Part shown: piece by piece, positions 1 to 64,000 of the stretch
Position numbering within the stretch: the first letter of the stretch is position 1
Layout: each line of letters opens with the position of its first letter
From: an uncultured Chthonomonadaceae bacterium
GTDB taxonomy: Bacteria; Armatimonadota; Chthonomonadetes; Chthonomonadales; Chthonomonadaceae
NCBI GenBank assembly: GCA_963835065.1
Contig: CAWIEK010000053.1
Location: 224,001 to 288,000 of the forward strand
DNA length: 64,000 bases
Direction: 5' to 3'
Translations under genes and position numbers: made by a program
The notes under the pieces: model-generated
Seen by the model: the letters and a program-made list of their open reading frames with translations, nothing else
Databases searched by the model: none
What the model was told of the DNA's origin: nothing

Positions 1-99
1 ATTCTGTTGGCTCCGGCTCATTGCGTGTATACTGAAGTCGTTGATAGGTGATAGTGAGGCAGGAACTATCAACTACTTAAAGGCAGGAGGGTTGAGAGG

Positions 100-375
100 A
101 TGCAATCCGCACTGAAACTGACAGCAACGGTTCTTCCCGGTAAGCGCGTGGAGTTCACCGCGCCTGAATTGACGGAAGGAGAATGTGTCGAAGTAATCGT
201 TCTTAAAGATGTACCTGTTGAAGACGCGCCTGTTGGCGTTACTCCACAACCGGCTCATCAATTTGCGTCGGCATGGGATTTTATTCAATCGCTGCCCCCT
301 TCAAATCTAACGGCGGAAGATTGGGAGCGCATGGAGCGCGAGTTTCAGGAGGAGCGTAATTCGTGGGGAGACTGA
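100..375 (+). CDS. Putative antitoxin (VapB-like)
   Basis: 91 aa, GGAGG RBS-like sequence upstream, acidic C-terminus ending EERNSWGD, overlaps the downstream PIN gene. Confidence 0.7.
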   Translation: MQSALKLTATVLPGKRVEFTAPELTEGECVEVIVLKDVPVEDAPVGVTPQPAHQFASAWDFIQSLPPSNLTAEDWERMEREFQEERNSWGD

Positions 376-803
376 TCTTACCAGCATCAGGATTCATTTA
401 CGTTGATGCGCAAATTCCTATCTATAGCGTAGATAGCCACCCCCAATATGGCGCTGTTTGCGCTCCGTTGTGGCAGGTGGTGAGCGCAACGATAGTTTCC
501 AGTGAGTTGACTCTGATGGAAACGCTTGTTGGGCCGCTGCGGAGTGGAGACACCGTTAAGCAAAACCAGCGTGAAGCCCTCTGGCAACAGATCAACACTC
601 GCCTTCTGCCGATCACTCAGGATGTTCTGCGGGAAGCGACGCGGCTTCGCGCGGTCATACCTGCGCTGAAAACGCCGGACGCTATCCACGCGGCAACCGC
701 CCTGCTGAACGGCTGCGTTCTGTTTGTTTCCAATGATACGGGTTTCCGCCGCATTCCCGGCCTGCCGCTTGTGCTGTTGGATGATGTGCTTGCCGCGCCA
801 TAA
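363..803 (+). CDS. vapC: PIN-domain toxin (VapC family)
   Basis: IYVDAQ N-terminal Asp, SELTLME, TPDAIHAATA and FVSND PIN motifs. Confidence 0.9.
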   Translation: MGRLILPASGFIYVDAQIPIYSVDSHPQYGAVCAPLWQVVSATIVSSELTLMETLVGPLRSGDTVKQNQREALWQQINTRLLPITQDVLREATRLRAVIPALKTPDAIHAATALLNGCVLFVSNDTGFRRIPGLPLVLLDDVLAAP

Positions 804-832
804 ACACTCTAGGCAAAAGTCAATCCTTTTGC

Positions 833-2092
833 CTATGGGATCACGGCTGCGGACACCATTTCAAGGACGCGGCGCAGGCCATCGTCGCCGCCCATGCTGC
901 CTTCGTTGAAGGGAGTGCGCGGAATGGGCTTCCAGTTGTCGCGGGACGTGTCCACCTGGAAGTTTTGCGGCAGGCCGGTCAGAGTAGGATCGTACTGGCC
1001 GTTGTTGCCGCCTAATTTGTAGATCACCAAATCAAGCGATGGCACGATGAAGATGCCGAAGCCGCCCGCGCCGGATTTGTAGTAAGCGTCGCGGGGCGCG
1101 CCCGCCACATGCCCGTCGGAATTGTTCTCGAACATCAGGCTGAAGGGCGTATGCGGGTTGTAGGGTAAGGGCTGGTTGCACTTGGCGACGTAATCGGCGG
1201 GCACAATCTGCTTGCCGTTCCATTGGCCTTTGTGCAGCAGGCAGTAGCCGAAGCGCAGGGCGTCCGTTGCGTGAACCGCGGTGCTGCCCGCGCCATTCGC
1301 GTGCGGCATGGTGTAATCGCCCCGGTGCAGGCAATAGTCCCACGCGCCCCACCCCATCGGCTTCGCCATTCGCTCGTTGATATAATCCCGCAACTCCATG
1401 CCGGTGACATGCCGCAGCACGATGGAAGCGATATGCGGCGCGGGCGAGGAGTAGGAATAGCCCCCACCCGGCGCTGTCCATAACGGAGTGCGCAGGGACG
1501 ATTGATCCAGATTGCGGATGTCCTGGCCGGGAACGGGCTGCAAAGGCACAACCTGCCCGTTGGTCACGCCCGGACTGCCGCCCTCGCCGTGATACCCCGC
1601 TGACATGCACAGCAGTTGCCCCAATGTAATGTCGGCTTTGCGCGCGTCATCCAGTGGAAACGCTTCGGGAAGATACTGCGGGGTAAACACCTTCTGGTCC
1701 AGGCCGTCCGGTATTTTGTCGTGGAACTCGTGGAGCATGATGCCGCAGGCGATACTCGTGTACGCTTTGCCCGTTGAGGCCATGTCCGGGTTGGCGTTGC
1801 GGTTGGCGCGTCCGTAGTATTTCTCATAAACCAGATAGCCGTGCCGAACCACAAGCAGGCCGCCGTTCTGGCTGCATCGCTGCGTAAAATCGTAGGCTTG
1901 TTCCAGCCGCGCCAAATCCATTCCCGCCAGTTTACGGATTGCCGCCGCATCCTTGAGCGTTCGCCACCCTCCGTTTGCATCCGATGGCGGGAAATAATCG
2001 GCAGGTTTCGCCTGTGCCAGAGAGGGTATAAGCAATAGAAGGAAAAACGCTGCCTGAAGCGCGAACCGGCTTAATTGTTGACCACTGTTCAT
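833..2092 (-). CDS. Secreted serine hydrolase, beta-lactamase class C-like
   Basis: Signal peptide, SxxK (ASTGK), YSYS, ITLGQLLCM, KSGAGG. Confidence 0.85.
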   Translation of the reverse strand: MNSGQQLSRFALQAAFFLLLLIPSLAQAKPADYFPPSDANGGWRTLKDAAAIRKLAGMDLARLEQAYDFTQRCSQNGGLLVVRHGYLVYEKYYGRANRNANPDMASTGKAYTSIACGIMLHEFHDKIPDGLDQKVFTPQYLPEAFPLDDARKADITLGQLLCMSAGYHGEGGSPGVTNGQVVPLQPVPGQDIRNLDQSSLRTPLWTAPGGGYSYSSPAPHIASIVLRHVTGMELRDYINERMAKPMGWGAWDYCLHRGDYTMPHANGAGSTAVHATDALRFGYCLLHKGQWNGKQIVPADYVAKCNQPLPYNPHTPFSLMFENNSDGHVAGAPRDAYYKSGAGGFGIFIVPSLDLVIYKLGGNNGQYDPTLTGLPQNFQVDTSRDNWKPIPRTPFNEGSMGGDDGLRRVLEMVSAAVIP

Positions 2093-2121
2093 TGTGTTCC
2101 TGTCCTATTATGATAACGGGT

Positions 2122-3513
2122 TTAATGTTGTCCCTTGAAGATCGTGGCGTAGATCAGATACAGGTTGAGGCCGGCGATGACAACGGCGATGCTCCAGCCA
2201 ATGGTCTTCGTCCACGCGCCGTTGACGAACGGCCCCATCTTGTCTTTGTTACTCGTGAATTGTACCAGAGGAATGACCGCGAACGATAGCTGCGCCGACA
2301 AAACGACCTGACTGAAGATGAGAAGCCGTTCCGTTCCCTGTTCGCCGTATAGGGCAATGGCGATGACAGCAGGCACGATTGCCAGTCCGCGCGAAATCAT
2401 GCGCCGCAGCCAGGGCTTGATGCGCAGATGCGTGAAGCCTTCCAGCACGACCTGCCCGGCCATGGTTCCCGTCAGCGTGGAGTTTTGCCCCGATGCGAGT
2501 AATGCAATCGCAAACAGGGGCGTTGCCAGGGACACGCCCACAATCGGCGTAATCAGCTTATACGCTTTCTGGATGCTGCCTACGTCGTGGTTGCCTGACC
2601 GGTAAAACGTGGCGGCGGCTAAAATCAAGATCGCGGCATTGACGAACAGGGCCAGCATCAGCGCAATCGTTGAGTCTGTATACGCCATTTTCAGCGCGTC
2701 GCGCAATTCGGGCAGAGTTTTGCCGTAACGCCGCGTCTGCACAATGGACGAATGGAGGTAGAGGTTGTGCGGCATCACGGTCGCGCCCAGAATGCCGAGC
2801 GCGATGTACAGCATGGCCGGATTGTGAACCACTTCCGCGCGGGGCGCGAAGCCGGACAGCACCGCCGCCCATTCGGGACGCGCATACGCCAATTCCAGCG
2901 CGAAAATCACAATCATCGTCGCAATCAGCGTAATCACGAGGCTTTCAATCCAGCGAAACCCCTTGTGCTGCAACGCCAGCACCAGCAGCACGTCCAGAGC
3001 CGTGATAATCACGCCCAGGATAAGCGGAATGTGAAACAGCAGGTTGAGCGCAATCGCCGCCCCAATCACTTCCGCAATGTCGCAGGCCACAATTGCGATT
3101 TCCGCCGACAGCCACAGCAGGATAGATACCCGCTTGCTGTAAGCGTCGCGGCATGCCTGCGCCAGATCGCGCCCCGCCACAATCCCAAGTTTCGCCGCCA
3201 ACGCCTGCAAAAAAATGGCGAGAAAATTGGAAATCAAAATTACGGACAGCAGGCGGTAGTTGTACTTCGCGCCGCCTTCAATGTCTGTCGCCCAGTTGCC
3301 GGGATCCATGTAGCCCACCGCCACCAGATACCCCGGCCCGATAAACGCCAGCAGGCGACGCCAAAAGGAAGCGCTCAAGGGCACGGCAATGGAACGATGC
3401 ACTTCGGGCAGGCTGGGCGCTCCGCCCTGTTCGCGCCATCCCGCCGTTTCGGACGTTTCTTCCGTCATGGGTTCGCTATCAATTGCAGCATCCATCACTC
3501 TATTCACTCTCAC
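2122..3513 (-). CDS. mntH: Nramp divalent metal (Mn2+) transporter
   Basis: GYMDPGNW and MPHNLYLHS signature motifs, many TM helices; start could be a few codons downstream. Confidence 0.97.
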
Positions 3514-4181
3514 TCTCCACTACAACTCTCACTTGTTACAACAAAAATTCGCTCTGCCGCCTGCGGAGCTACTCGCGCGATTGCCCCGCCGACGCGCACA
3601 AGAAACGCGCCGCCAAAAGGTTCCTGCTCGATAAATTCGATGGCCGTACCCGGCAGCAATCCCAACTGCTTCAAATGCCGCAGCAGCGCGGCGTCCTCAT
3701 CGGCCACGCGGCGAATGGTCAGCGCGGCGGGGGTATGCTGCTGCGCGAGCGTGAGCGTGGACACCTGCGCGATCAGGCCGTCCCGCGTCGGTATCGGGTC
3801 GCCATGCGGGCAGGCGGTCGGGCGGCCAAGCAGGGCGTCAATACGCTCTTCAAATTCCTCGCTGATATGGTGTTCCAGCCGCTCGGCTTCTTCATGCACC
3901 GCGTCCCATTCATAGCCCAGCGCCTGCACAAGATACAATTCCAGCAGCCGATGATGCCGAATGATTTCCAGCGCCATTTTTTCGCCGGTGGGCGTCAAAT
4001 GAATTCCATGATAGGGAGCATGGTCTACAAGGCGCAATTCCGTCAGCCGCTTGAGCATCTTGCTGACGGCTGCCGCGCTCACCTGCATCCGCGCCGCCAC
4101 ATCCAGCGTACTCACCTCGGCGGAATCCTGCCCCGCTTTGTAAATCGCCTTGATGTAATCCTCAACAGAAGGAGAAGACAT
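3510..4181 (-). CDS. mntR: DtxR/MntR metal-dependent repressor with FeoA domain
   Basis: [34 protein letters not shown] at 4181 with GGAG RBS. Confidence 0.95.
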
Positions 4182-4215
4182 GCCAGACTCCTGTAGATAA
4201 ACCCCACGCAAACCA

Positions 4216-4274
4216 AATTTGAAACCCAGGTTAAACTTCTTTGCTACTATACCTCAAATTTAGAGAAATTACAA
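4216..4274 (-). promoter_or_regulatory. Sigma70 promoter of mntR-mntH with candidate MntR operator
   Basis: TTGTAA(4274-4269)-17bp-TATAGT(4251-4246); imperfect palindrome TTTAACC-TG-GGTTTCA just downstream. Confidence 0.6.
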
Positions 4275-4282
4275 GACGCAAC

Positions 4283-4322
4283 AAGCGGGGGAGGATGCTG
4301 ACATAAGCATCCTCCCCCGCTT
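4283..4322. terminator. Perfect 17-bp inverted repeat downstream of the pilus cluster
   Basis: AAGCGGGGGAGGATGCT-6nt-AGCATCCTCCCCCGCTT. Confidence 0.75.
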
Positions 4323-4361
4323 CCATCCTCTGCTTTACAATTCTTCGTTCAGCCTACGCAA

Positions 4362-5243
4362 CTACGGCTGCGCTTTCGCGGATGGCTCCGCATTGCCTGA
4401 CGGGACGGGCGTGGAGGTCAACTCAACCGTATTTGTCGGCTTGCTGTCTTCGGCGGCAGCCACGCGGCGAACAGGGCCGAAGCCCATGCCCGGAGCCATG
4501 CTGTCGGGCGCGTTAAAGCCTTCGGTTCCCGGCTTGACGGGCATAGCCACGCTCAGGGACTTGCCAACCTGAATAAACCATGTTTGCTTGCCCCGCTTGA
4601 CGTAAACGCCGTCTTCGGTAATGCGCGTCAGCGACATATTGAAGGGCATTTGTTCGCCCGCGCTGAGAGGATAGGAGCGCTCGCCCACATGAATTACGGC
4701 AACCGCCTGCGGCCCGGCAATCACGCCCGCCAGAATCATCTGGTTGGCCTGCGCGTTCGGATCATTTTGCGGCGTCAGGCCGGCCGGAACAGAACCGCCC
4801 GCGCCCAGGCGGGGATTTCCCGCCCGGAATGTCGGCAGTACGCTCGGCCCGACAGCTACGCTTGTGAAGGGGCGCGGGGTAGAAGTGACCTTACGCGGCG
4901 GCGCGGTGGGGTGAAATATCGGGTTAGGGCCATCTTCTTCGGGCACTGCCGGCGTGAAGGGGTTTTTGGTCGTTATCGGCTCACTGACGCTGTCGTCGTA
5001 CATATCCAGTTTGCTGCCGCCCATGCCCTTCATCGGCATATTTCCCGGCACAAAGCCAGCGCCAAGCGTTCCCTGTGTCGCCGGCGTGATGGCAGCCCCA
5101 GGAGCGTTTGTGGCGGCTGCCGCCTCCGGTTTATTGCCGTTCAGCAACCGGGGCAGCGTTCGCCCGACGCCGAACAGCAGCACAACGCCGGTGGCAACCC
5201 CTAATCCGATAACCGTCGGGCGTTCTTCAGGTTTGATTTTCAT
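4362..5243 (-). CDS. PilP/GspC-like membrane-anchored pilus assembly protein
   Basis: N-terminal TM, NPF motif, LAGVIAG..AVI beta domain, coupled to the secretin gene. Confidence 0.6.
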   Translation of the reverse strand: MKIKPEERPTVIGLGVATGVVLLFGVGRTLPRLLNGNKPEAAAATNAPGAAITPATQGTLGAGFVPGNMPMKGMGGSKLDMYDDSVSEPITTKNPFTPAVPEEDGPNPIFHPTAPPRKVTSTPRPFTSVAVGPSVLPTFRAGNPRLGAGGSVPAGLTPQNDPNAQANQMILAGVIAGPQAVAVIHVGERSYPLSAGEQMPFNMSLTRITEDGVYVKRGKQTWFIQVGKSLSVAMPVKPGTEGFNAPDSMAPGMGFGPVRRVAAAEDSKPTNTVELTSTPVPSGNAEPSAKAQP

Positions 5244-7294
5244 GGTTTTTTGCCCTTGTTGATAAAGATGTCTTCAGGCAGGTGAGAGCCGCGCGGATTG
5301 GGAACGGTAACGCGGGTTTCCTCAACGGTTTTTGCGGCGGAATTGGCTCTTTCGGCTTCGGTCATGGTATTGGTCAGGTGCGGCGTGATAAAGACCATGA
5401 CTTCGCTGCGGACGCGGTTGTGCTGGCGATAACGGAACAGTTCGCCCACAAGCGGCAGTTTCGACAAAATGGGAACTTCCGAAACCGTGCGCGTCAAATC
5501 GTCGCGGATCAGCCCGCCGATAATAATAGTTTCGCCATCCTGCACCATGACGGTTGTTTCCGCTTCGCGGTTGCTGGTCTGCGGAATGTTGCCCGCCGAC
5601 AGCGAGGTAATGGTACTCACGACGGGATGGACGCGCATGGTGATGTGGCCGTCCGCATTGACGCGGGGGCGCACCAGCAGAATAATGCCGACCGGAAATT
5701 CCAGCACCTGAATCGTGGTTCCCGAAATCCCCGACTGCGAAATCTGAGTGCGGACCGTATCGCCGATGAAAATACTGGCGTCGTCATTGTCCGTCACTTG
5801 AACGCGCGGGTCGGCCAGCATTTTGCTGTTGGTGCGCGTTGTCAGCGCGCTGATCTGCGCGCCGAAGCCCGGTCCAAGCCGGCTGAATGTCGCGCTGTTG
5901 AAACTGGCGCTGTTGGTGGTCTGCACTCCGCCGGTTGTCGGATCAATCGTTGAACCGGACGGATAGTTGCCGACGGCAATAGGAGCATACTGATACTGTA
6001 CGCCCAGCGCCTGTATAAATTGGGGGGACACGTCCACGACTTTGACTTCCACCATGACCTGACGGGGCGCTACGTCCACTTGTTCCAGCAGGGTCAATAC
6101 CTGCGTGATGTCGCCCAATGTGCCGTTCAGCACCAGCGTTTTGGCGCGGTCGTTTACCGCGCCACGTCCGTTGGAACTGGAAGCGTTGCCGGTGACAACT
6201 CCCCCGCCGTTCGCGTTGCCGACAGCGGCTTCCGCGATGTTACTGCCGCCATTCACATCGCCAATCCCGCCGCCCGTCGTGCTGCCTCCCGTCGTTGATG
6301 AAGTGCCGGAGCCGCCCACGCTGCTGGAAGCGGTTCCCAGCGCGCCGCCCGTGATCGGGTTGAAACTGGGGCGCGGCGGCGAGTAGCTTTCCGGGCCGGT
6401 CAGTACGGTGACGTTGGGCGCGGCGCTTTGCAGGAAAGATCGCAGTACGCGCGAACTGCTGTACTTGATATTGTAAATGCGGAACACGCGATCCGGTTCT
6501 TTGGCAATCGCGCTGTTGTCTATGGTCGCCAGGGATTGCCGGGCGCGCTCGATCATCGAACGCGGGCCGGCCAGTCCAATCGAGCCGCCGGGCTTGGTCG
6601 GGTCGCCAATCGCCTGTATTTTCAGTTCGGGGTACAGGCTTTTCAGCACATTGACGGCCTGCGTGGAATTGACGTTTTGCACCGCGATCACTTCGGTCAT
6701 AGCCGGGTCGGGAGTGCGCAAGCCATCCTGTTCGCGCAGCAGCGCCTGCGCCTGCTGCAAATCCGCAGCCGCTCCAATCAGCAGCAGTTGCGAACCGGCG
6801 GGCCGCGCGGTAACATACGGGAAAGCCTCTTCCACCACTTTAATCGCGTCCGCGGAATTCAGCGACATCAGGGGAACCCGCGCCTGCTCACCCAACGGCT
6901 CAATAGCCTGCCGCAGCGCGGCCGCCGGGGCCACCACATACGAGTTGCCGACCTGCCGAAACGCCAACCCTGACGCAGCCGTGATGTAACGCAGCGCTTC
7001 TTCGGTCGTGGACGCATTGACGTTGATGGAGATAAGTTTTTTGCCCGCTCCCGCATAAACGATGTTGTCTCGCGTGCGGACTCCCAGCGCTTGCAGCACT
7101 TCGGAGACATCGGTGTCAACAAAGCGAATGCGAATGTCGCCCCGGCGTGGATTGTTGATTTGCAGGCTGCTCTTAAGCCCCGATGTTTGGCTGTTGACGA
7201 ACGCCGGCATTTGCGCGGAAACGCCGACGGCCAGTGGCAGAAGCAGGTGGCGCGCTCTCAGGGACGCTCTAGGTTTACAGGTTCGGGTGTGCAT
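5240..7294 (-). CDS. Secretin (PilQ/GspD family)
   Basis: QVMVEVKVVDV, ETTVMVQDGETIIIGGLI, VPILSKLPLVGELF, VFITPH. Confidence 0.95.
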   Translation of the reverse strand: MHTRTCKPRASLRARHLLLPLAVGVSAQMPAFVNSQTSGLKSSLQINNPRRGDIRIRFVDTDVSEVLQALGVRTRDNIVYAGAGKKLISINVNASTTEEALRYITAASGLAFRQVGNSYVVAPAAALRQAIEPLGEQARVPLMSLNSADAIKVVEEAFPYVTARPAGSQLLLIGAAADLQQAQALLREQDGLRTPDPAMTEVIAVQNVNSTQAVNVLKSLYPELKIQAIGDPTKPGGSIGLAGPRSMIERARQSLATIDNSAIAKEPDRVFRIYNIKYSSSRVLRSFLQSAAPNVTVLTGPESYSPPRPSFNPITGGALGTASSSVGGSGTSSTTGGSTTGGGIGDVNGGSNIAEAAVGNANGGGVVTGNASSSNGRGAVNDRAKTLVLNGTLGDITQVLTLLEQVDVAPRQVMVEVKVVDVSPQFIQALGVQYQYAPIAVGNYPSGSTIDPTTGGVQTTNSASFNSATFSRLGPGFGAQISALTTRTNSKMLADPRVQVTDNDDASIFIGDTVRTQISQSGISGTTIQVLEFPVGIILLVRPRVNADGHITMRVHPVVSTITSLSAGNIPQTSNREAETTVMVQDGETIIIGGLIRDDLTRTVSEVPILSKLPLVGELFRYRQHNRVRSEVMVFITPHLTNTMTEAERANSAAKTVEETRVTVPNPRGSHLPEDIFINKGKKP

Positions 7295-7434
7295 GTCAAT
7301 CAGAATTCCCCTTTACGCGCCGAACTTCACGCGAATCATGGATTGGATAAATAACTTGAAGGCCGCAAGGCTGTTTCCAGGCGGCGGGACGCTGAAAGTT
7401 CGTAAGTTCCTGTCCCTCTCTCAACTATCAACTA

Positions 7435-8049
7435 TCAACTGTTACCGGCAGGCGCGGCATCCCCCGTCGGCTTGGTGGGAGGAGGGATAGGAACGGCCAC
7501 ATAGCGCAGCAGGGTAAATCCCAGATGCGTGAGCGGCCATTTCTCGTTGGTCGTTCCCCGGTTCCATTTCAAATCTACGGTGTTGTACAGGCGGGGCGCA
7601 TGCAGCAATTGATACATGAATTGCCGGATGGAATTGTAATCTCCCGCCACTTCCACCTCGCTGTTGAGCGCCATGACGCCCGGCGGCAGCGTGGGTTTTT
7701 TCGCTTCGGCGCTGTCCGGGGGAGGCGGCGGAATATAGCGATTGTTGTACCGCACCAGCCGCACTCGGCTTTTCTCGGCAAAACCGCGTATCATGTTCAG
7801 GAATTGCGATTGTTCATCGTAAGTGGGAGGAACAACCGCCACTTTACTCAGGGTTGGTTTGGCTTTTATTTCCAGAGAAAGGCGGTTCAGAACCGCCAGT
7901 TGCTGCTCAGTTTTCTCCTTCTGCTCCTTGAGTGAATTCAGTTTATTCCACTGGAGGAAGACCAGAAAGATGGCCGCCATGACGCCGATGATGGGCAGCA
8001 GGACCGTTGCCAGCTTGAGCCAGGAAAAAGTGGAAGGGGATTTGTTCAT
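7435..8049 (-). CDS. pilO: PilO-like protein
   Basis: Single TM, coiled coil, EVAGDYNSIRQFMYQL motif, follows pilM-N. Confidence 0.75.
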   Translation of the reverse strand: MNKSPSTFSWLKLATVLLPIIGVMAAIFLVFLQWNKLNSLKEQKEKTEQQLAVLNRLSLEIKAKPTLSKVAVVPPTYDEQSQFLNMIRGFAEKSRVRLVRYNNRYIPPPPPDSAEAKKPTLPPGVMALNSEVEVAGDYNSIRQFMYQLLHAPRLYNTVDLKWNRGTTNEKWPLTHLGFTLLRYVAVPIPPPTKPTGDAAPAGNS

Positions 8050-9734: not shown

Positions 9735-9831
9735 TGCTGTTTGTTCTCACGAAGCCGTTATTGATAGTTGATAGTTGGCCGTTGCTAGGAAGACAGGAAC
9801 TACAAACTATCAACTATCAACTATCAACTAT

Positions 9832-10563
9832 TCAGGAAGTGGGCGGCGGCGGACTGTTGCGCAGGCGGACAAAACTTTGCAGGGTGCGCGTTTCTCCGTT
9901 CAAGCTGACCGTCGCCACAATGTTGACGGCTCCCACCAGCGGCAGTTCCGAAGCGGAGGGCGCATGGGGATCGGCTGTCGTCACCCACCCCGAAACGTCG
10001 GCATTATACGCGCCGCCCGCCGGGACATAGTAGGTGATTTGCAGCGACTGCATATCCGTCACCAAAGGTTCCGAGGAGCTGCCCCCGCTGCCGCCAGCGC
10101 CGGTGCCACTGCCCCCACCCGATGAAGCCGTGCCCGCGCTTGGCCCCGAGCCGCCGCTCGCTCCTGAACCGCTCCTTGATCGTCGCAGCACTTGCGCACT
10201 CGTATCCAGCCAGATGCGCGTGGTATCGCCTGAATCGTCGGTATAGCAGGTCACGTCGGAACCACTGGCGGCAACAAGCGCGGCGGCGCTGCTTCCCGAA
10301 CCGTTGGACTGGGCATTGCGCAGCGTATCCCCCAGAACGTCCAGGGGACGGCGGCTGGAAGTGTTGGCGTAGTTCTGGCCCTGAATGGTGAGTTGGGCGA
10401 TATAGCTGCTTTGCTGCAAAGATACCAGAACCGCTCCGGTCAACAGCGCAATCACGCAGCCGACCAGCAGATCAATCAGCATGCTGCCATGCGTTGCGGC
10501 GGCCAGTCCGGACAAGCGCATTGGCACAGCGGTACGCAAACGCACAGAATTAAAATGCGTCAT
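9832..10563 (-). CDS. Minor pilin, PilW-like
   Basis: G|SMLIDLLVG prepilin-like helix, C-terminal VRLRN motif, Gly/Ser insert. Confidence 0.7.
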   Translation of the reverse strand: MTHFNSVRLRTAVPMRLSGLAAATHGSMLIDLLVGCVIALLTGAVLVSLQQSSYIAQLTIQGQNYANTSSRRPLDVLGDTLRNAQSNGSGSSAAALVAASGSDVTCYTDDSGDTTRIWLDTSAQVLRRSRSGSGASGGSGPSAGTASSGGGSGTGAGGSGGSSSEPLVTDMQSLQITYYVPAGGAYNADVSGWVTTADPHAPSASELPLVGAVNIVATVSLNGETRTLQSFVRLRNSPPPPTS

Positions 10564-15314: not shown

Positions 15315-15317
15315 AAT

Positions 15318-27413: not shown

Positions 27414-27523
27414 GGAAGGGAGTAGGGAGTAGGTGGTAGGGAGTAGGACAAGCAAAGTCATTCCTACTCCCTACCACCTACTCTCTACCACCTACTCCCT
27501 ACTCCCTACTTCTGGAGACTGCC

Positions 27524-32629: not shown

Positions 32630-33223
32630 CAGGAATTGTCCTTGTAAAATTTTGGATGTAGTATTGTACCCGGCACACTCCGCATTGACAGCACTCTATG
32701 AAATACGGGGTTATCCCGGCAGTCTGTAGAATCGGAGATAATTCAGGGGCGGTGGCTACCGGTAAGTGTTCATAAATCCATAACTTGTCGAACCAGCGGG
32801 AAGTCGAGCAAACAACGGATGAAGGATGAAAAGACAAGGATGAAGGATGAAGGATGAAGGATGAAAGCGCCGGGAAAAGGGCATGTAGAAAAAAGAGTAT
32901 GTAGAGTCATCGTCGAAATCTTGGCAATGCAGCGCTTCCAGCCCGATGTCTCGTTGTGTCAGGTTGTAGGAGAGAGGCGTCGTGACCTCGTAAGCATCAG
33001 GGCGAACGGGAGGGGTGTGGGAACATAGGACTGGCACCTCCCTTCCTGTGTGTCTAACATCTGCATAGTAGACGTTCGTACCACTATTTAGACGACTGTG
33101 TTGAGTTAAGGTTTCACTTTTTTCGCGTTGTTTGGATTTTTTTGCGGAATTATTTTACCGAATTGTTTTTGTTGGCTGGTTGCTGTTGGCGTTGTGTGAA
33201 GAACGGTGCAGGACGCTTGCTTA

Positions 33224-33932: not shown

Positions 33933-34607
33933 TTAGGCGCGACGCTTTCGGCTTTGGTGGCACAGCAGGCCGCTTCCCGCCATCAGGCTTGCCAGGAGGG
34001 CGATATTGCCGGGTTCGGGAACGGCGGCAATTGTCGGCGCGGCAATCGTCAGGGGAGTTCCGCCGCCTGCCGGGGATTGGGTATCATCGCTGGCGAAGGC
34101 TTGCAAGTTCAGCGGGTCGCCTGTCAAGTCGGTGAGCAGGAACACATCGGAGCCGACGTTGGCAAGTCCGAGGGTGGGCAGTTCCGTGCCGCTGCTGTCG
34201 AGAATGGCAAACGTGAACTCGTCCGGCGTGCCGCTTGCGTCGGCCCTATTGGTCAGCGTCAGGTCGAAGTCCAGTACGCTGCCCGGCGTGAACTCCTGCG
34301 CGAAATCGTTGAGCAGGCCGGTATCGGTCAGCGTCACGCTGGAAGCGAGATTGCCGGTCACGCCGCCCATTGCCGTCGGAGTCCCGGCTCCACTCCCCCC
34401 GCCGAAGGCGAAGTTGAACAGCCGAACCGTATTGTTGGCGTCACCGGGCGTATTGCCGCTGCCGTCCGTAAACTGGAAGTTCAGAGCAAACGGTCCCGCT
34501 GCGTGGCCGACAAGTGGCGAGGTGTCCATGCGGATGTGGTAAGCCTGCGTTTGCGCATGGCACAGGGTTCCTATGCACAGCAAACTTAACGTGGAAAGCA
34601 GGCGCAT
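33933..34607 (-). CDS. PEP-CTERM surface protein
   Basis: Own signal peptide MRLLSTLSLL..CHA; VPEP + TM + RKRR. Confidence 0.85.
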   Translation of the reverse strand: MRLLSTLSLLCIGTLCHAQTQAYHIRMDTSPLVGHAAGPFALNFQFTDGSGNTPGDANNTVRLFNFAFGGGSGAGTPTAMGGVTGNLASSVTLTDTGLLNDFAQEFTPGSVLDFDLTLTNRADASGTPDEFTFAILDSSGTELPTLGLANVGSDVFLLTDLTGDPLNLQAFASDDTQSPAGGGTPLTIAAPTIAAVPEPGNIALLASLMAGSGLLCHQSRKRRA

Positions 34608-34657
34608 GGCATAGGCGCTTTTATGCGCCGGTATGCAAAAATAGTGTGGCAAAGGTT

Positions 34658-36278
34658 TCAAGGCTGGGTTCCTCCGGCGAGAATGCGCGTAGTGTAAGTG
34701 AACGCCCGATTGGACGGATTGCTGAACTGCAGAGTGATCGGTGACGCTGGCTCCCGGCGCGAGGCGATTGCCTGTCGTCGGATATACGTTCATATAGGGG
34801 CTGTTGAACGGCGCAAGCGATTGGGTAAGGCCGTTCGCGGAAGCCAGCGTGACGCCAGGCGGCAGGCCGTCAAGAGCGAGAAACACACTGCCCGGAATGG
34901 ACGCGGACGACGTGTTTTTCAGCGTGATTTGCTGCGCGTACAGGTTCGTGCCGCGGTTGAAACGCAGGCCGCCCCGCGTAACGCGCATCTGTGAGGTGAC
35001 ATCATGCAGGCCACGATTGTTCAGCAGGACGCTGGCATCGCCGCTGGTAAAGTTTGCCGTGACGAGGTCGGGAAAGCCATCGCCGTTGAAATCCCCAACG
35101 GCCAGCCAGTTCGGGCCAATCCCGTTGATGGCATAGGTTTGCAAATCCCCGAATGTGCCATCCCCGTTGCCGGGCAGAACGCTCACCGAGTTGCTGGTAT
35201 AGTTGGCGGTGACGAGGTCCAGTTTGCCGTCGCCGTTGATATCCACGATGACGAGGCCGTCCGGTCCCGATCCACTGCCGGTGGAAATAATCTGCTGGCT
35301 TTGAAACGTTCCGTCGCCGTTTCCGAAATAAACGCTCACATTGTCGTCGCTGTAGCCGGGAACCACGACATCCAGATTGCCGTCGTGGTTCAGGTCGGCG
35401 ACGGCAACGGCATACGGGTTCTGGCCGACCGGCAGATCGCTGGAAGCGCCGAACGTGCCGTCGCCGTTGTTGAGCAGCGTGGAAAAGGTTCCGCCGTAGG
35501 AGTTGGCGGTGACAATATCGAGTTTGCCGTCGTGGTTGAGATCGGCGAGGACAATAGCCTGCGGGCCGCTCCCGGCATTGTAAAGCTGAACCGTTTGAAA
35601 GGTTCCATCCCCGTTGCCAAACAGGACGCCAACGGTATCATTTTCGTAGTTGGCGGTGACGATATCCGGCTTGCCGTCGCCGTTCACGTCCCCAATAGCA
35701 ACGCCTTCCGGCACGGCATCCGTTGCGAACGTCAGGGGCGACTGAAACGTTCCATCCCCATTGCCAAGCAGGACGCTGACATTGCCGTTTGTGGTGCTGG
35801 CGGTCACAATATCCGGCTTGCCATCGCCGTTCACATCCGCGACAGCCATGCTTTCCGGCCTGCTTCCGACGGCAAATTCCAGCGGGTCCTGAAAGGTTCC
35901 ATCGCCGTTGCCAAGCAGGACGCTGACGCTGCTGACTCGCCGGTTCACAACGGCAATGTCGGGAATGCCATCGTGGTTGAAATCGGCAACCACAGACGCA
36001 TACGCCCCGAAATCCGTTGTATACTCATCACTCGGCCCGAAAAGCGGACGCTGCTGCGCCTGCGCCTGCCGAGACAGGCCGGACAGGGCAAACAAAGTAA
36101 ACAGCATCGCAAGCGCGGCTAAACGGTTGATAGTTGATAGTTGATAGTTGATAGGGAGGCAGGAACTACGAACTTTCAGCGCCCCTCTGGTTAGACGCAT
36201 ACCTTGCGTACATGGAATAGCGCGGCGAATACCGCGTCGGATTCGCGCTGCGTCAGTCAAAACAAAAACGGCGGACAT
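34658..36278 (-). CDS. FG-GAP/VCBS repeat secreted protein, +1 frameshift near 34740
   Basis: Seven DxNxDGxxD repeats; the alternate frame restores TLQFSNPSNR..RILAGGTQP*, matching the paralogue's end. Confidence 0.85.
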
Positions 36279-42394: not shown

Positions 42395-42469
42395 CTTTGG
42401 GGCACAAGATATAAGGGAAAAGGAAAAAGGAGAAAGAATGAAATTCATCCTTCATCCTTCATCCTTTCC

Positions 42470-53587: not shown

Positions 53588-53787
53588 GATGCCTGTCTAT
53601 TCGCGAAGATAGAAGCACATTCCTCTTCATTTCTTCATAGTTTGTTCGCTTGCAGTGAGTTGATTTTATCTACCTTTGGGAACTGTCAATACACTTTTCC
53701 ACGTCCTAACCCTGAACTGTCTGTCACTTCAGTTTTTCGGATTGTCAACATTGTTTTTATTTGGCAGGATTGCGGGAGGAGCCTTCC

Positions 53788-54471: not shown

Positions 54472-54626
54472 AAGATTGACTGCTGTTACCGGCTACAATT
54501 GGGCCGGTAATGGCACGGCCCATGTCGCCATGATTGGGTACAGTACCGGCAAGGCTTCCAGCAGTTCACGTACAGACTGATACCCGGCTAACGACTGTGC
54601 CGATGTGAAATAGTCTCCAGGCAATT

Positions 54627-55127: not shown

Positions 55128-55175
55128 GGTATGTTTCTCCTTCCCTACCCACCTTGCTGCAAACAGAATATGGCA

Positions 55176-55907: not shown

Positions 55908-56019
55908 CTGTTTTCTACTTTCTCCTACACATGCTTTTCAGGTAGGGAAATGCGCGTTAATCTCATGCCGAAAAAGGCAAGTAGTAGATTTACGCCTCCT
56001 AAGCACCCAATACTCAAAT

Positions 56020-57255: not shown

Positions 57256-57274
57256 GCGCCAGTCTCCTTGTATA

Positions 57275-57498
57275 AACCGCGAAACACGCCAAACAAACGA
57301 AAAAAGAACAAAAACAAAAATACAAACCACGGAGAACACGGAGAACACGGAGGAACGCGGATAGGAATATCAGGAGGCTGTTTTGATGAACAGAGCTTTT
57401 TCCATCTTTGTTCGTAATCCTGTTTAATCCTTCTAATCCTCTTAATCCTGTCTATTTTCTTTCGTATTCTTTTCGTTTGGTTCGCGTGTTTCGCGGTT
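57275..57498. repeat. 29-bp inverted repeat enclosing two other 9-mer arrays
   Basis: 57275-57303 versus 57470-57498 (27/29); internal (CACGGAGAA)3 and (TAATCCTnn)4. Confidence 0.85.
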
Positions 57499-57503
57499 CT
57501 TAC

Positions 57504-59018
57504 TTATGCAAGTATCGGATGGATCACTTCGCCGCTTACATCGGTCAGGCGCATGTTGCGGCCACTGTACTGGTACGTGAGGCGGGTATGGTCCAGGCCA
57601 AGCAGATGCAGAATGGTGGCGTTGAGGTCATATACTGTCTGCACGTTTTCAGACGCGACGTAGCCGATTTCATCCGACGCGCCGTAAATGGTTCCGCCCT
57701 TGACGCCGCCGCCCGCCAGCCAGCACGAGAACGCTTTCGGGTTGTGGTCGCGGCCCACGCTGCCTTCGGTAAACGGCATACGTCCAAACTCGGTATGGAA
57801 CACGAGCAGGGTGTCCTCGAACAAGCCGCGCTGTTTCAGATCGCGGATCAGGCCGGCAATCGGGAGGTCAATTTCGCCCGCCCGCATCGTGTGGTTGGGA
57901 ACCATCGCGTTGTGCGCGTCCCAACTCTGGTCGAATACGCCGCCGCCGGAGTAAATCTGCACAAAGCGAACGCCGCGCTCCACCAGCCGACGCGCCAGCA
58001 AACACTGCCGCCCGACGATTTCGGTTTGCGGCTTGTCCAGACCGTACAGCGTTTTCGTGGCCTCGGACTCGCGGCTCAAATCAACCGCTTCCGTCGCTTC
58101 CGACTGCATCCGGTACGCCAGTTCATACGCCCGTATCCGCGCCGCCAACTCCTGCTCGCCCGGACGCCCGCGCAGAAACTCCTCATTGAGTTTGCCGATG
58201 AAGTCCAGATGTTCGCGCTGCTTTTCGGGCGTGACGCCGGCGGGCGGCTTCAGGTTGAGGACCGGCAAGCCCTGACTGCGAAACTGTACGCCCTGATAGT
58301 TGGATGGCAGAAAGCCCGCGCTCCAGTTGCCCGCGCCGCCGCCGACAAGGGCGCGCGGATCGGTCATCACGACAAACGCGGGCAGGTTCTGGTTTTCGGT
58401 TCCCAATCCATAGGTGATCCAGTTGCCCAACCCCGGCCTGCCGCTCAAAATGCTGCCGGTCAGCATGTGGTACACGGCGGGAACGTGGTTGTTGCTGTCG
58501 GACTTCATGGAGCGGATGAGGGCAATATCATCGGCGCAGCTTCCGATATGCGGCAATAAGTCGGACACGGGCATCCCGCACTGACCGTATGGCTTGAACT
58601 GCCAGGGACTTTTCATCAATTTGCCCGGCGCGCTCCGCCCGCCCGTGTCAAAGCCGGGCCGCCCCGCAACCGAAGCGCCATCTTGTTTGATAAGCTCGCT
58701 TTTCGGGTCAAACGTGTCAACGTGGCTGATGCCGCCGAACATAAACAGCGAAATCACGCGCTTCACTTTGGGCGCGAAGTGCGGCGGTTTTGGGAAGAGC
58801 GGGTCTTGGGTGTTGGGATTGCCGATTGCCGATTGCCGATTGTGGATTGTGGATTGTTCCCTGACCCCTGACCCATGACCCCTGGCCCCTTCTCCTAAAG
58901 CGCCTTCTTCACCAAGCAGAAAGGCCAATGCCAGCCCGCCAATGCCGCCGCCTGCCCGCGCCAGGAAGTCTCGCCGCGCAATGTTCTCCGGCCCGCTATG
59001 ATCGTCGTGTGGTTCCAT
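57504..59018 (-). CDS. DUF1501 family protein (Tat signal)
   Basis: RRDFL, GGISHVDTFDPK, LLARRLVERGVRFV, WDAH, EFGRMP, GRDH. Confidence 0.93.
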   Translation of the reverse strand: MEPHDDHSGPENIARRDFLARAGGGIGGLALAFLLGEEGALGEGARGHGSGVREQSTIHNRQSAIGNPNTQDPLFPKPPHFAPKVKRVISLFMFGGISHVDTFDPKSELIKQDGASVAGRPGFDTGGRSAPGKLMKSPWQFKPYGQCGMPVSDLLPHIGSCADDIALIRSMKSDSNNHVPAVYHMLTGSILSGRPGLGNWITYGLGTENQNLPAFVVMTDPRALVGGGAGNWSAGFLPSNYQGVQFRSQGLPVLNLKPPAGVTPEKQREHLDFIGKLNEEFLRGRPGEQELAARIRAYELAYRMQSEATEAVDLSRESEATKTLYGLDKPQTEIVGRQCLLARRLVERGVRFVQIYSGGGVFDQSWDAHNAMVPNHTMRAGEIDLPIAGLIRDLKQRGLFEDTLLVFHTEFGRMPFTEGSVGRDHNPKAFSCWLAGGGVKGGTIYGASDEIGYVASENVQTVYDLNATILHLLGLDHTRLTYQYSGRNMRLTDVSGEVIHPILA

Positions 59019-59031
59019 ATCAGTTTTCCTA

Positions 59032-59355
59032 CTACCTTCGCATGTCTTGACCCGTTAATGATGTTTCTGCCTGATTCCATACCGACCAAACTTCGGCGGC
59101 AAGTGGCAAAACCGATTCTACAAAGCGCAGTCCTTCTTCAGACAACAAGCGATAACCCTCCGCAGCCAATTCGTCCTGACAGAGACGGGCATCTTCGACA
59201 ACAAGGTCCGCCAGGTAGCGGTTCACTAATTTGTCTTCTTCCGTTGTGCGCTGCCACAAAACATTTATGACAGCACTTTCAAAATACAGGTTCAGCTTTA
59301 TCAAAGACAGGGACATACCTTCTACTTTAGTATGTGCTACGAACCGGTATAGCAC
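59032..59355 (-). CDS. Small ORF, possible antitoxin remnant
   Basis: LAAEGY..E..RF.E..LP pattern; start uncertain. Confidence 0.3.
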   Translation of the reverse strand: MLYRFVAHTKVEGMSLSLIKLNLYFESAVINVLWQRTTEEDKLVNRYLADLVVEDARLCQDELAAEGYRLLSEEGLRFVESVLPLAAEVWSVWNQAETSLTGQDMRR

Positions 59356-59379
59356 AATCTTCTTTACTTGATTGGAAGA

Positions 59380-60406
59380 AATTACTTCCTCTTACAACGC
59401 CGAAGCAGTTCCAGCCAAGCCAGAACATCTTTTGCGCCGTTGCGAACAGCCTCATTCGGTTCCCGCAAAACTTTATGGCACAATTGTTCTATGGAAGGTA
59501 CATCAAAGGTCCGAATACAGAGAAACCATTTCGGGCGCGTTGTGCAGCAGTTCCAGCACTTCTATTTTTTCTGGAACTGTGAGCTGTCTTGTTGCCAAAA
59601 CTTTGCGTGGCAATTCTCTCCAAGCATCCGTATGTTCAGAGGTTTCTACATCCTTATCCCTCCAGCCAAGGCGACATAGACAATTATGCGCGGTATCATG
59701 GATGTAGTAGTCTTTGCTTTGCAATGCCATTGCCAGCAGCTTGACTGACAAGAACTTGCTGTCTGCATTAAGGGGAAATGCCTGCAACGCGCGAAGTATG
59801 CTCAGGCGAACAGTTTGGGATGCTTGCGGGTATAAAGATGTAAGCAGTTCTATGGCCGATTTGGTTGCAATTCGCGTAAGTGCGTACACCGCAGCAAACT
59901 GGCTATCTTCACCACTGTTGTACAAAATCTCCCGTAAAATTGGAATTGCTTCATCGCCTGCAAGGTACATTGTGCGGATACTTCGGAACAACGGCTTGGC
60001 TATGGTCCTGTAATGCCAACTGCAAGAGCGGCAGAATCGATAAACTTCCAATTCGCCCTAATGATCGAACCGCCTCAACGCGCACACCTTCTACCTCATC
60101 CTGCAATGCAATGGAGAGGCCGTTAATAGCCGCCGGATTTCCAATATGCCCCAACGCTATTACGGCAGCAAGCCGAGTGACAATTTGATAATCTTGAAGT
60201 TTACCAATCAGCAAAGGTATGGCTTCTAAGCTGCCCTGATGCCCCAATGCTTTGATCGCGCTCTGACGCACCCTCTCGTCCCAATGGTTCAGCAAGCCAA
60301 TCAACGGTTCAATGGCGCGAGTGTCGAAAATATCCTGATAAACCTCTAATGCTGCAAGGCGCGTTTCCATTTCAGGGCTATTCAAGGCTTCCAGTGGGTC
60401 ATCCAT
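59380..60406 (-). pseudogene. HEAT-repeat protein split by at least 2 frameshifts
   Basis: VRQSAIKALG, TRLAAVIALG, VRVEAVRSLG; continues in other frames to EAVRNGAKDVL..LELLR. Confidence 0.7.
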
Positions 60407-60443
60407 GATACATCCGCCGTTCACGCGAACAGACAGTCACACA

Positions 60444-60874
60444 TTATCCGTAAGTTGCTTGCACGGCCTGCGGCTGTTCATTCCATTGGAAGACATAACC
60501 ACGCCGAAATTCTAAGCCATGAATTCTTCGTTCGTGAATTCATGGTAGCGCGGGTTTATTTGCTGCTGTGCCCGCATATATACGAGAAATTCCTTAACGA
60601 AGGGTTCATCAGGGCGTAAAACGACAACACGCGATATAGTAAGCAACTCTTCTTTTGTGAGAGACTTCTTCAACTTGTCGAACACCAAGTCCAATGTTGG
60701 TTTTGTGTTTTCCCCTACCCAGGGTGCCGAGACGATAATATCCCATGGTCCTACGGAGTTTTCTCTCTCCAGAAGAGCAAATAAGGTAAACTCTCCCCGC
60801 ATACGGGCGAGTTCCTGTTGAATCTCCGGCAAAACTTGAAGCAAGCGAGCTTTTTTTGATTGATAATCCATCAT
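60444..60874 (-). CDS. HEPN-partner hypothetical protein, frameshift near 60520
   Basis: LFALLERE..WDIIVSAPW; the alternate frame continues GLEFRRGYVF to TAA at 60444. Confidence 0.6.
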
Positions 60875-60875
60875 T

Positions 60876-61274
60876 TCAGATAACCTTTACCAACACGCGA
60901 ACTGCGGAAATCATATTGAGCGCGTCTGTTTGTGTAACAGAACCCACAGGGCGATAACACACTTCCGGCGTCCAGTTGTTCGTACCATTTGACCATTCCG
61001 AACCGTAATCAGCCCGAATACGCGCTTCGATACCGGAAAGTGTCAACAAAACATCAAGATCATGCGTCTTGAAACTTTGATAATGCGCGAACTCTCGGTT
61101 GGATTCGGGAAAACCTGCCCACTTCAGCGTTCGGCAGATACGCGCCTTCAAAGCAACTTCGACAGCATACCCACACAAGTAGACAGCGCCATCGTAGCGT
61201 TTGTTGCGGTAAAGCGCTTGCGCTTCATTCAAACGAACACGCGCAATCAGTCTCAAATTAGCAATGGAAATCAT
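60876..61274 (-). CDS. HEPN domain protein
   Basis: YDGAVYLCGYAVEVALKA, KTHDL. Confidence 0.85.
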   Translation of the reverse strand: MISIANLRLIARVRLNEAQALYRNKRYDGAVYLCGYAVEVALKARICRTLKWAGFPESNREFAHYQSFKTHDLDVLLTLSGIEARIRADYGSEWSNGTNNWTPEVCYRPVGSVTQTDALNMISAVRVLVKVI

Positions 61275-61303
61275 AGCCCTGTAGCTTCTGCCTCCCTTCT
61301 ATG

Positions 61304-63552
61304 CTATGGCACGTATACGAACTCGTTCAGGTTGAACACGGCCTGGCAGAAGTCGGAGAGGGCGGACGCGCCGCGCTTTTGCATGAATGTCAGGCTCAGG
61401 TTTAGTTCCTGCGCCGACGGGCTGCGGCCAAATGCCAGTTGGTAGGCGCGTTCTACCTGTTGGCGCGGATTGTTGGGACACTCTTTTTGCAGACGTTGCG
61501 CGAACAAGCCGGCCTGCCGCAGAATGAGCGGGTCGTTGAGCAGAGTCAGAGCTTGCAGGGGCGTGGTCGTGACATTGCGCTGCGCCACCGTATACGTAAT
61601 TTCGGGGCAGTCGAACACTTCCAGTTCCGGCAGCAGCGTGGAGCGTTTCACCTTCACGTACACGCTGCGCCGCCATGTGGACGCATCATCTTCGCCGTCG
61701 TGCCAGTTGGGACCTTGAAACGTGTCGGCGCGGAGGGATGGATCAATCGGCGGATACACGGGCGGGCCACCCATTTGCAGGTTCAGGGTTCCCGCCAGCG
61801 ACAAAATGGTGTCTCGTATCGGTTCGCCTTCCAAACGGCGCACGGGCATACGCCAGTAATACTTGTCCTGCGGGTCGGCCTTCATCCCCGCGTCGCGCAT
61901 GTCCGAAGCCTGCTGATACGTGGACGAGAGGAGCATCAGGCGGTGCAGGGGCTTGAGGCGCCATTGCATGGCAAATGATGAGTGATGAGTGATGAGTGAT
62001 GAATTGGATTTTGTATTCCATTCATCATTCATCATTCCTCGTTCATCATTTGCAACGAAGTTGCTTGCCAGCCAATCCAGCAGTTCCGGGTGGGAGGGCC
62101 GTTCGCCGTTGAGGCCGAAGTTGCTGGGCGTGTTGACCAGGCCCCTGCCGAAGTGCTGCCGCCACACGCGGTTGACCCACACGCGGGCGGTGAGCGGGTT
62201 TTGCGGACTGGTCAGCCAATCGGCAAGCGCGGTTCGGCGTCCCGTCGTGGCGGCGGTTGCGGGAGCGGTTCCAACATCCGTTGCGCCATTGGGCAGGAAA
62301 CAGATAAAGCCCGGCTTTACCTCGTCGCCCGGATGGTAGGCGTCGCCGCGCAACAGCAAATGGCAGGCCGGAAACTCGCGGCCTCTGTCGGTGACGATTT
62401 GGGCGTGGGGAACTTCCAAACGCTGCGCTTCCAGCGCTTTCACCTGCTGCTGAAGCGCCGTAAATTGCTTACGAGCGGGTTCGGGCAGAGCGGCGGAGTA
62501 TTTGCGCGTCATCGGGTTTCGGCTGTCCCGCTTTCTTTGCGGCTTCCTCGCCCTGCTTATGCAGAGCGTCTAGTTGCGGGCGCAAGGCGGCCAGTTGTTT
62601 ATCCAAGCGGCGCGTTGTGTTCGGCGACGGTACGGCGTTCTTCCACACTCGCGCACTCCACTTCGCGCCGCTCGGTTGGGGCGAAGATGGCGGCCAGTCG
62701 GTAGTAATCCGTCTGCTTGACGGGATCATACTTGTGGTCGTGACACCGGGCGCAGCCAATCGTCAGGCCAAGCATGACCGAACCTGTAGTGGCAACCAGA
62801 TCATCCAGTTCGTTGGCGCGGGTTCGGGCGTTGTTTTCTACAATGTCCTGCGGGCCACAGGCGAGATACCCGGTTGCAATCAGCGCGTTAGGATCGTTGG
62901 GCTTGAGTTCATCGCCGGCAATCTGTTCGCGTATAAATTCGTTGTACGGCTTGTCCTGATTGAAAGCGTCAATCACATAATCCCGGTATCGCCAGGCAAG
63001 GACACGGTCTTTATCCCCCTCGAAGCCGCCACTGTCGGCGTAACGCGCCAAATCCAGCCAGTGCCGCCCCCACCGCTCGCCATAGCGCGGACTTGCCAGC
63101 AGGCCATCCACAACTTTTTCCCAGGCACGGGGAGACTTGTCGTTGACAAACGCTTCCACATCGGCAGGCGCAGGCGGCAGGCCGATCAAATCGAAATATG
63201 CGCGGCGAATCAACGCGCGGCGGGACGCGGGCGGAGACGGCTGCAAACCGTTTTCGCGCATTTTAGCAAGCACGAAAGCGTCAATCGGATTATGTATCCA
63301 CGCAGATTGTATCTTGGGAACAGGCGGCAGCACAGGCGCTTTGAAAGCCCACCAAACCTGCGGCTGCGCCTTATTGACGATTTTCGATTGCCGATTGACG
63401 ATTGACGATTTGGTTCCTGCTGTTCCCTGTTCCCTGTTCCCTGTTCTCTGTTCTTCTGTTTGACACGCGGCGGCAAGGGACAGCGCGGCGAGGCCGAGCG
63501 TCAAACCGAGTTGTATATTCCGTATGGCGCGATGTGGTCGCCCGTTGCTCAT
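61304..63552 (-). CDS. DUF1549/DUF1553 (PSCyt2/PSD1) protein with two frameshifts (about 62610 and 62500)
   Basis: [53 protein letters not shown]. Confidence 0.88.
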
Positions 63553-64000
63553 GCCGTTTCTCCCGCCCGTTAAGCAGTTGAGAGTTGAGAGTTCGTAGTT
63601 GATAGACAGGCAGGAACTACGAACCTTCAGCGTTCCTCCGCTTCGTTTCTGCGCTTCCCTGCGCAATGCCCGCCTGTAAACAATCTTATTGCCCTATTCT
63701 ACCATTTTCAACCGAGCATGGCAGACAAATTGCGCGGAGTTGCAGAGGCGTTGCGCCTTGCCATTGCGTCACAAGCGTTGTTGATTTTCGTTTTGACTAG
63801 CATACAAGGGAAGATTCGTTTTGTTAGACACGCTAAGTTCTTTGGAGTTGCAGGGAAAGGGGGCGGCAAGGCTGATTGCCCACGCCTCGACACTTTCAAG
63901 CAGGCCGGCTGTACGTGTAATTGCGTAAACACGCCGTAATGTCCGAATACCGAATACCTGAATACCGAACACCGAAGTTTTCAAGGCGAAATACTTAATG

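Follow-up and report, generated by a model that had tools for sequence, protein, structure and literature searches.

A dispersed 70-bp element with IS630-type ends, likely a miniature transposon, carries a heptamer array in a Chthonomonadaceae genome

A 64,000-nucleotide stretch from an uncultured Chthonomonadaceae bacterium (positions 224001-288000 of contig C53 in the genome called G000 here; hereafter the window) contains five copies of a composite repeat, in which an array of the heptamer GTTGATA is joined to a conserved 22-base core, and it raises the question of how the two parts came to be combined and dispersed together. A sequence-only reading had located the five copies, all of which read as it described, and had proposed that the core seeds or templates the addition of heptamers. 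The two parts are strongly concentrated in the window: the 9-mer CAGGAACTA occurs 6 times (0.17 expected by chance) and a two-unit heptamer pattern 11 times (0.15 expected). The explanation that fits best, and that we hold to be very likely, is that each copy represents a 70-bp element, bounded by TA dinucleotides and with ends of the IS630 type, a miniature inverted-repeat transposable element (MITE) moved in trans, whose left end was overwritten by GTTGATA before it spread. The source genome (8.0 Mb in 71 contigs, 57% GC, 92% complete) was compared with a sister genome of about 7.5 Mb, G002, over 118 tiles (2.36 Mb, 67–86% identity).

The core occurs in G000 as 10 exact and 66 near matches (up to 3 mismatches). 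Family A was defined as the core-bearing 76-bp repeat outside a second family, B, which is described below. Copies were counted with a hidden Markov model (HMM) of the right half only, because the reversed array resembles its own complement; a full-length model gave 192 hits in the reversed genome, which was therefore uninformative as a control. The right-half model returned 87 hits of at least 15 bits in G000 and none in the reversed genome at 14 bits. These hits comprise 76 copies of family A, 10 of family B and one reverse-strand duplicate, and the family probably numbers about 75 to 100 copies in all. Every one of the 76 copies has an array upstream. Conservation ends sharply: beyond the C-TA of the left end and the TA-G of the right end, the information drops to about 0 bits. 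The 76-bp unit holds no transposase gene and its tips pair as inverted repeats. No direct repeats of 4 bases or more were found beyond the C and G ends in 65 copies, and covariation between the arms gave no clear signal. Among the 52 distinct full copies, the mean difference from the consensus is 14%, and any two copies differ at 7 or more bases. Among 31 genomes searched, family A is present in G000 and G002 only. Exact core patterns gave no match in GTDB contigs, IMG/VR or metagenome contigs, where records near the source genome may be omitted, and the A-type left arm was found at two metagenome loci, both without the core.

The sequence-only reading had itself allowed that the core could be a fragment of a known insertion sequence (IS) end, as a finding that would speak against its proposal, and this is nearly what was found, the core being the inner portion of an IS630-type right end. 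At both ends of A, the TA is followed after 18 nt by GTTCGTAG, as in the IS630 copies of G000 and G002; at the right end this motif is the core read backwards, and at the left end it coincides with the third heptamer. A search for other elements with the tips of A recovered two families that lack the heptamer, with TA, 18 nt and (G/C)TTCGTAG at both ends: family C (74–76 bp; in G000 at C3 183071, C7 7445, C16 175690, C44 339935, C46 181817, C50 133873 and C67 56001) and family D (132–133 bp; at C11 1753, C28 5262 and C68 107461). A broken IS630 of 960 bp (G000 C54:33311-34270; L274) has C/D-type ends around a frame with helix-turn-helix (HTH) and DDE_3 domains, and its 330-bp deletion is bridged by its own family-C mini-element, with both junctions at TA. 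G002 holds two full copies of this IS630 (L281 and L287), 87–90% identical to it and both flanked by C-TA and TA-G. In L281 two long frames meet at an A-run, where a −1 frameshift may join them. Both transposase halves match the NCBIfam IS630 transposase (E about 1e-20), scoring below the full-length cut-off because the frames are halves, and both also match Pfam HTH and DDE_3. A second IS630 type occurs at G000:C46:145997-147076 and C49:769855-770934, with TA-flanked ends and AAGTTC about 20 bases in.

The resemblance was quantified with a matrix of nine IS ends, chosen partly by the GTTCGTAG motif itself and with one of the nine probably spurious; on this matrix, the left consensus of A lies in the top 2e-5 and the right in the top 1e-4 of 477,482 genomic TA sites, and the 99.9th percentile is passed by 56/56 left ends and 43/56 right ends. 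An HMM built from 14 family-C elements only provides an independent test, because it avoids the motif-chosen IS ends: 42 of the 76 A copies reach at least 10 bits with it, and the reversed genome gives a single hit. Aligned with A, which requires no gaps, the best members of C are identical at 50–51 of 76 positions, the GAGATG linker included. The end-to-end pattern of the mini-element was found in 6 of 42 genomes of the family (control, 0). DNA of this IS is present in four of the five genomes other than G000 that have the mini-element; in the remaining one, G001, there is no transposase match. The IS630 subgroup itself occurs in 10 of the 301 genomes of the phylum that were searched.

Comparison with G002 bears out the claim of a dispersed, non-autonomous element, since the 76 core-bearing copies have sharp ends and A is absent at all mapped G002 sites. 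Of 74 distinct A sites, 11 could be mapped to the G002 tiles; none of these holds A and two hold a different repeat cassette. G002 has four copies of its own, of which one could be mapped to G000, where the site is empty. Duplication of TA on insertion fits three of the four informative empty sites. For the window copy at 36119, removal of 72 nt (70 plus one TA) makes the encoded N-terminus colinear with the G002 orthologue, while taking out 70 or 74 nt disrupts the frame. The A insert at C54 85720, internal and in frame, is missing from the G002 orthologue, where the site reads C-CA-G, and at C24 103922 the two genomes are colinear once one TA is kept. The duplicated TA lies mostly in a C-TA-G context. 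At 15 empty sites of other heptamer cassettes, judged by eye, no consistent TA duplication was found. As far as sequence comparison can tell, family A has the testable features of an IS630-family MITE, being short, geneless and multi-copy, with IS630 ends, TA duplication and presence/absence differences between genomes.

The window copies illustrate both the standard form and its derivatives, and their limits are wider than first given because the conserved tip is present at both ends. The copy at 36119..36194 (+ strand, 76 bp) is full length and reads C-TA, 70-bp element, TA-G, with the TA of the target duplication at 36120..36121 and 36192..36193. Its left end consists of four GTTGATA units, the third converted from GTTCGTA, and its right end holds the core (36160..36181), which makes up the inward portion of the right terminal inverted repeat and whose reverse complement has GTTCGTAG 18 nt inward from the TA. 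The other full-length copy (63570..63645, + strand, 76 bp) has an intact GTTCGTAG at 63591-63598 and a decayed right TA. A three-unit copy lies on the minus strand at about 7378..7446; the matching gap in G002 is filled by a different 8-mer cassette, and a bridging contig of sequencing run X2 (depth 3.6) shows four units at this place, one more than the window. Three copies had been credited with the full core: it is exact at 36160 only, with one mismatch at 63611 and a 1-nt insertion in the 7381 copy. The two copies said to turn into the complementary array are indeed hairpins. In the one at about 9750..9835 (+ strand; DNA fold z −4.9), a duplicate of the heptamer arm stands in place of the outer right end, and the corresponding G002 site has no array; the shorter one, at about 31..78 (+ strand; z −3.3), consists of two units, a partial core and a complementary unit. 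Right after it, positions 100-803 hold a small open reading frame (ORF) and a PIN-domain gene that resemble a toxin-antitoxin pair. Contigs of runs X1–X4, inspected at the window copies, gave no clean empty site, and Rfam had no match in the window. Elsewhere, in the region G000:C8:10108-11074, an A copy is directly bordered by a mini-element and a DDE_Tnp_1 insertion sequence, which use the terminal bases of A as target.

Array length does vary, as had been claimed, although weakly: the offset from tip to core corresponds to four units in 55 of the 76 copies, to three in 8 and to two in 2. The third unit is GTTCGTA in 28 of the 55 four-unit copies; it has been converted to GTTGATA in 9 of 56 full copies and is missing from 13 of 14 short ones. 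Unit changes after insertion are losses and smoothing, not additions. Seven hairpin derivatives, including the two of the window, were found in G000. In each, the outer right end is complementary array, and the two arms are complementary with the purine-rich arm first, an arrangement not seen in the standard form of A. These observations can be placed in a single scheme. An IS630 transposase would cut and paste the element into TA, as for ISY100, and its need for a given spacing may be what keeps the number of units from tip to motif at two (4 + 14 = 18 nt) and thereby the array length fixed. After landing, slippage or conversion would remove or smooth the GTTCGTA unit, and copying of the left arm over the right would create the hairpin, which would immobilise the copy. 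Family A looks old, because of its mean divergence from the consensus and the broken state of the local transposase.

The copies also bear on the genes around them, and those supplying or abutting stop codons had been correctly recognized. On the minus strand, the ORF at 7435..8049, in a pilM/N-secretin operon, stops within the array at the TGA of the first heptamer, and the ORF at 9832..10563 stops at the end of the 9760 copy. Pfam assigns neither ORF to a family, which leaves the names pilO and pilW given to them provisional; the neighbours are PilM/PilN and secretin genes. The statement that two copies are read in ORF N-termini stands for one of them. The copy at 36119-36194 is in frame in the N-terminal region of an FG-GAP repeat protein (33933..36278, minus strand) and adds 24 codons, which are probably translated, to judge from the ribosome-binding site and ATG at 36278 and the G002 orthologue. 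At 63570 the gene caller puts the start of a DUF1549 gene, for which no orthologue was found, at 63552, and the element is probably upstream of the real start. Position statistics were compiled from our own gene calls over the 74 distinct sites. A gene points into the left end from within 300 bp at 35 of them, and in 18 of the 35 its stop codon is formed by element positions 2–4; the next array stop is used twice and the third frame never. The right end supplies a host stop codon once, against 18 of 74 for the left. The enrichment is partly explained by the fact that a gene stays intact when the element inserts at the TA within its stop codon. Five G002 orthologues have a real upstream gene; two stop at the same codon and three within 5–13 codons. 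Two C/D mini-element copies also supply a stop codon. A 754-residue ORF at G000:C54:84691-86955 (L321:692-2956, minus strand) contains in-frame heptamer arrays as well as an in-frame A copy; in the G002 orthologue a shorter repeat insert occupies one of these spots, and G001 has none in repeat form.

The distinctive part of A is its left end. The heptamer is missing from the IS ends in five genomes and from 13 of the 14 family-C elements, so the heptamer-free state is ancestral. A has the tip, the motif and the linker in common with C, whereas the intervening stretches have been exchanged for others of the same length. GTTCGTAG is two changes away from the heptamer and was probably the seed of a single rewriting event at the left end; the heptamers may have been written by slippage, by chance conversion from an existing array or by a dedicated system. 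A simpler account keeps the same IS630 MITE and makes its left end heptameric by local slippage from GTTCGTAG or by one recombination with a (GTTGATA)4 array, and we give this somewhat less than an even chance. The nearness of the motif to the heptamer speaks for it, as do the gain or loss of units in steps of 7 and the 316 GTTGATA arrays available as donors. A single crossover would not, however, preserve tip, motif and GAGATG linker and exchange what lies between them at constant length, and the unit is the commonest heptamer of the genome and not an arbitrary slippage product.

Family A has to be seen against its genomic background. Heptamer arrays are widespread in gene junctions across bacterial phyla, the cyanobacterial STRR being one example. 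G000 contains 1795 arrays of period 7 against 32 of period 6, and GTTGATA is the commonest heptamer, accounting for 279 of 2298 arrays. In all, 738 of the 2298 stand in inverted pairs of the same unit, against a mean of 119 and a maximum of 149 after shuffling of labels; the purine-rich arm comes first and the spacers are mostly 40–80 bp. In the window, such inverted 7–9-mer hairpin cassettes occur for example at 27417-27510, 32817-32905, 42413-42466 and 61976-62050. Spacers within one unit class look by eye like a recognisable family, and some clean empty cassette sites share a few bases with the unit (C56 61974). The 316 GTTGATA arrays divide into 87 before an A core, 46 in family B, 83 core-less hairpins and 100 with other neighbours, and their modal length is four units in every class. 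Family B has 161 copies in G000 (e.g. C1 124585), with an extracytoplasmic function (ECF)-type promoter, a micro-ORF ending CCC TGA and a conserved tail; at least 85 of them have a core-like motif and an array of variable length and unit between promoter and ribosome site, which may descend from an A copy that was captured, decayed and is no longer bound by the spacing constraint. Other occurrences of the arrays include a candidate tRNA-like sequence bracketed by GTTGATA arrays (G000:C49:430366-430660) and a heptamer array in or beside a group II intron-type reverse transcriptase (RT) locus (L328:2492-2540).

At 512 orthologous junctions of G000 and G002, arrays are present in both genomes at 84, in one of the two at 74 and 40, and in neither at 314 (odds ratio 8.9, p 5e-23), and the unit is the same in only 10 of the 84. 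This context favours a general turnover process. The pattern would be explained by an active system that overwrites DNA with a genome-wide 7–9-base unit, seeded at lookalike sequences, with length kept and often in both arms of a hairpin, A being a fossil of its action, an IS630 end converted in patches around GTTCGTAG: junctions would share arrays far above chance yet seldom share the unit. Four-helix-bundle and GxxExxY proteins would then be the candidate agents; the three genes of each kind in G000 all lie between inverted arrays of units other than GTTGATA. We regard such a system as doubtful. Against simple overwriting, orthologous spacers are rarely recognisable, and recurrent insertion at hot spots, or saturation, would account for the data equally well. 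Over 45 orthologous junctions that differ in unit, mean spacer homology is above the permutation null (p < 0.0002), and the orthologous spacer is the best partner at only 3. The mean is probably raised by a small number of long spacers of host origin, which leaves overwriting and repeated hot-spot insertion indistinguishable here; among spacers of hairpin cassettes tested for host derivation, only 4 of 66 beat all shuffles.

The remaining explanations can be weighed against the IS630 ends. That the core seeds or templates heptamers at each site, for example through an RT with an RNA template, now seems very improbable. The array upstream of all 76 core hits outside family B would agree with it, as would the variable length and unit of the family-B array beside a core-like motif. 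The core is absent, though, from 183 of the 316 GTTGATA arrays in G000 and from all of at least 119 four-unit loci in other bacteria, which makes the core dispensable for an array; conversely, families C and D and the IS630 ends have the core motif but no heptamers, the length of A is mostly fixed and its changes run to loss or smoothing. G000 has two RTs, one like that of a group II intron and one like that of a retron; no template was found, and no GTTGATA repeat is reported within 1.5 kb of them. Nor did a master copy emerge between GTTGATA arrays, where the long-spacer pairs proved to be separate elements with ordinary host genes in between. Slightly more credible, but still improbable, is an emptied heptamer cassette of a four-helix-bundle protein (the protein of 23S intervening sequences, IVS), with the core as the decayed complementary arm. 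The reverse complement of the core does resemble three degenerate units, the excess of inverted pairs and the position of the four-helix-bundle and GxxExxY genes suit such cassettes, and two of the 119 outside loci have the array beside a four-helix-bundle gene. In G000, however, GTTGATA flanks 0/3 of the genes of either kind, the long-spacer pairs examined contain no such ORF, the core matches the IS630 ends in register and spacing, and the 15 empty sites of other cassettes show no consistent TA duplication. Least probable of all is a REP-like palindrome (repetitive extragenic palindrome) spread by a REP-associated tyrosine transposase (RAYT): A is an imperfect palindrome in intergenic gaps, with some copies head to head (e.g. 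C2 47575), and G000 has 4 Y1 transposase hits, but the palindromes around the Y1 genes are different ones and A has the TA duplication and IS630-type ends.

Several observations weigh against a MITE of IS630 origin. G000, 92% complete as assembled, yielded no intact cognate transposase, only the deleted, MITE-interrupted copy, which implies inactivity in this genome; membership of a MITE family does not require an intact one. The tips of A read AGC and those of the G000 and G002 IS copies AGT, while IS ends in G033 and G017 begin AGC. Besides the selection of the matrix ends by motif, 12 of 18 homologous loci in the phylum are without such an IS end. The empty site of the duplicated C43/C69 locus needs a 1–2 nt gap with TA duplicated and is ambiguous, and the left tip of the 7381 copy coincides with 7 host bases also present in G002, with no clean C-TA junction. 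The comparison with G002 spans about a third of that genome, at the identity given above, and the 18:1 bias towards the left end at stop codons is unexplained by the MITE model.

The closest parallel among described elements is RUP of Streptococcus pneumoniae, given in the cited passages of PMC2229807 as a 107-bp MITE with IS630-Spn1 as its proposed mover. Like RUP, A is short and non-coding, has about 100 copies, ends like those of a resident IS630 and a terminal TA; its heptamer-free sister, family C, likewise inserts in its own transposase gene (C54). Unlike RUP as described there, A measures 70 bp, consists almost wholly of two ends and a short linker, has one end rebuilt from a 7-base repeat, and has one open reading frame permitting in-frame insertion. 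ISY100, also of the IS630 family, inserts into TA, duplicates it and needs about 30 bp of each end, according to the portion of PMC2170065 drawn on here. The relatives of A share with the IS630/Tc1/mariner group an HTH and DDE transposase, imperfect ends of about 24–29 bp, TA duplication and the C-TA-G context, a CTAG preference being reported for IS630; unlike elements of the ISY100 type, A is non-autonomous. The palindromic RPE of Rickettsia are fused in frame to proteins (PMC2229807, same passages). A resembles RPE, ERIC and Correia/NEMIS in occurring in frame in proteins (checked against orthologues at 36119 and C54 85720) and at gene ends, and orientation matters for ERIC as it does for A; unlike what those passages give for these elements, the parent transposon and the heptamer-free sister of A are identified.

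Among heptamer repeats, the intergenic TAACTGA units of Beggiatoaceae have no evident mechanism of spread in the cited part of PMC4679880, and in Coxiella heptamers precede the IVS S23p ORF (PMC4990558, in the part cited). The array of A is like these in having about four 7-base units in gene junctions, stops in all frames and an association of heptamers with four-helix-bundle genes; it differs from them, as far as the cited parts describe them, in having a known non-repeat ancestor and in riding on a transposon end. Searches of the open-access literature (supplements excluded) returned no heptamer-converted IS630 MITE or IS end and no swapping of units at orthologous junctions. As that of an IS630 miniature transposon, the dispersal of A would in itself be ordinary, and its value lies in the left end. 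Here a heptamer array can be compared with its non-repeat ancestor, in family C and the IS ends, a rare before-and-after view that points to constant-length replacement around a similar motif and not to open-ended addition. Having hitch-hiked on the transposon, the array would have reached about 100 sites, proteins (as 24-residue inserts) and the leader of family B, and the origin of heptamer arrays becomes testable with a defined substrate.

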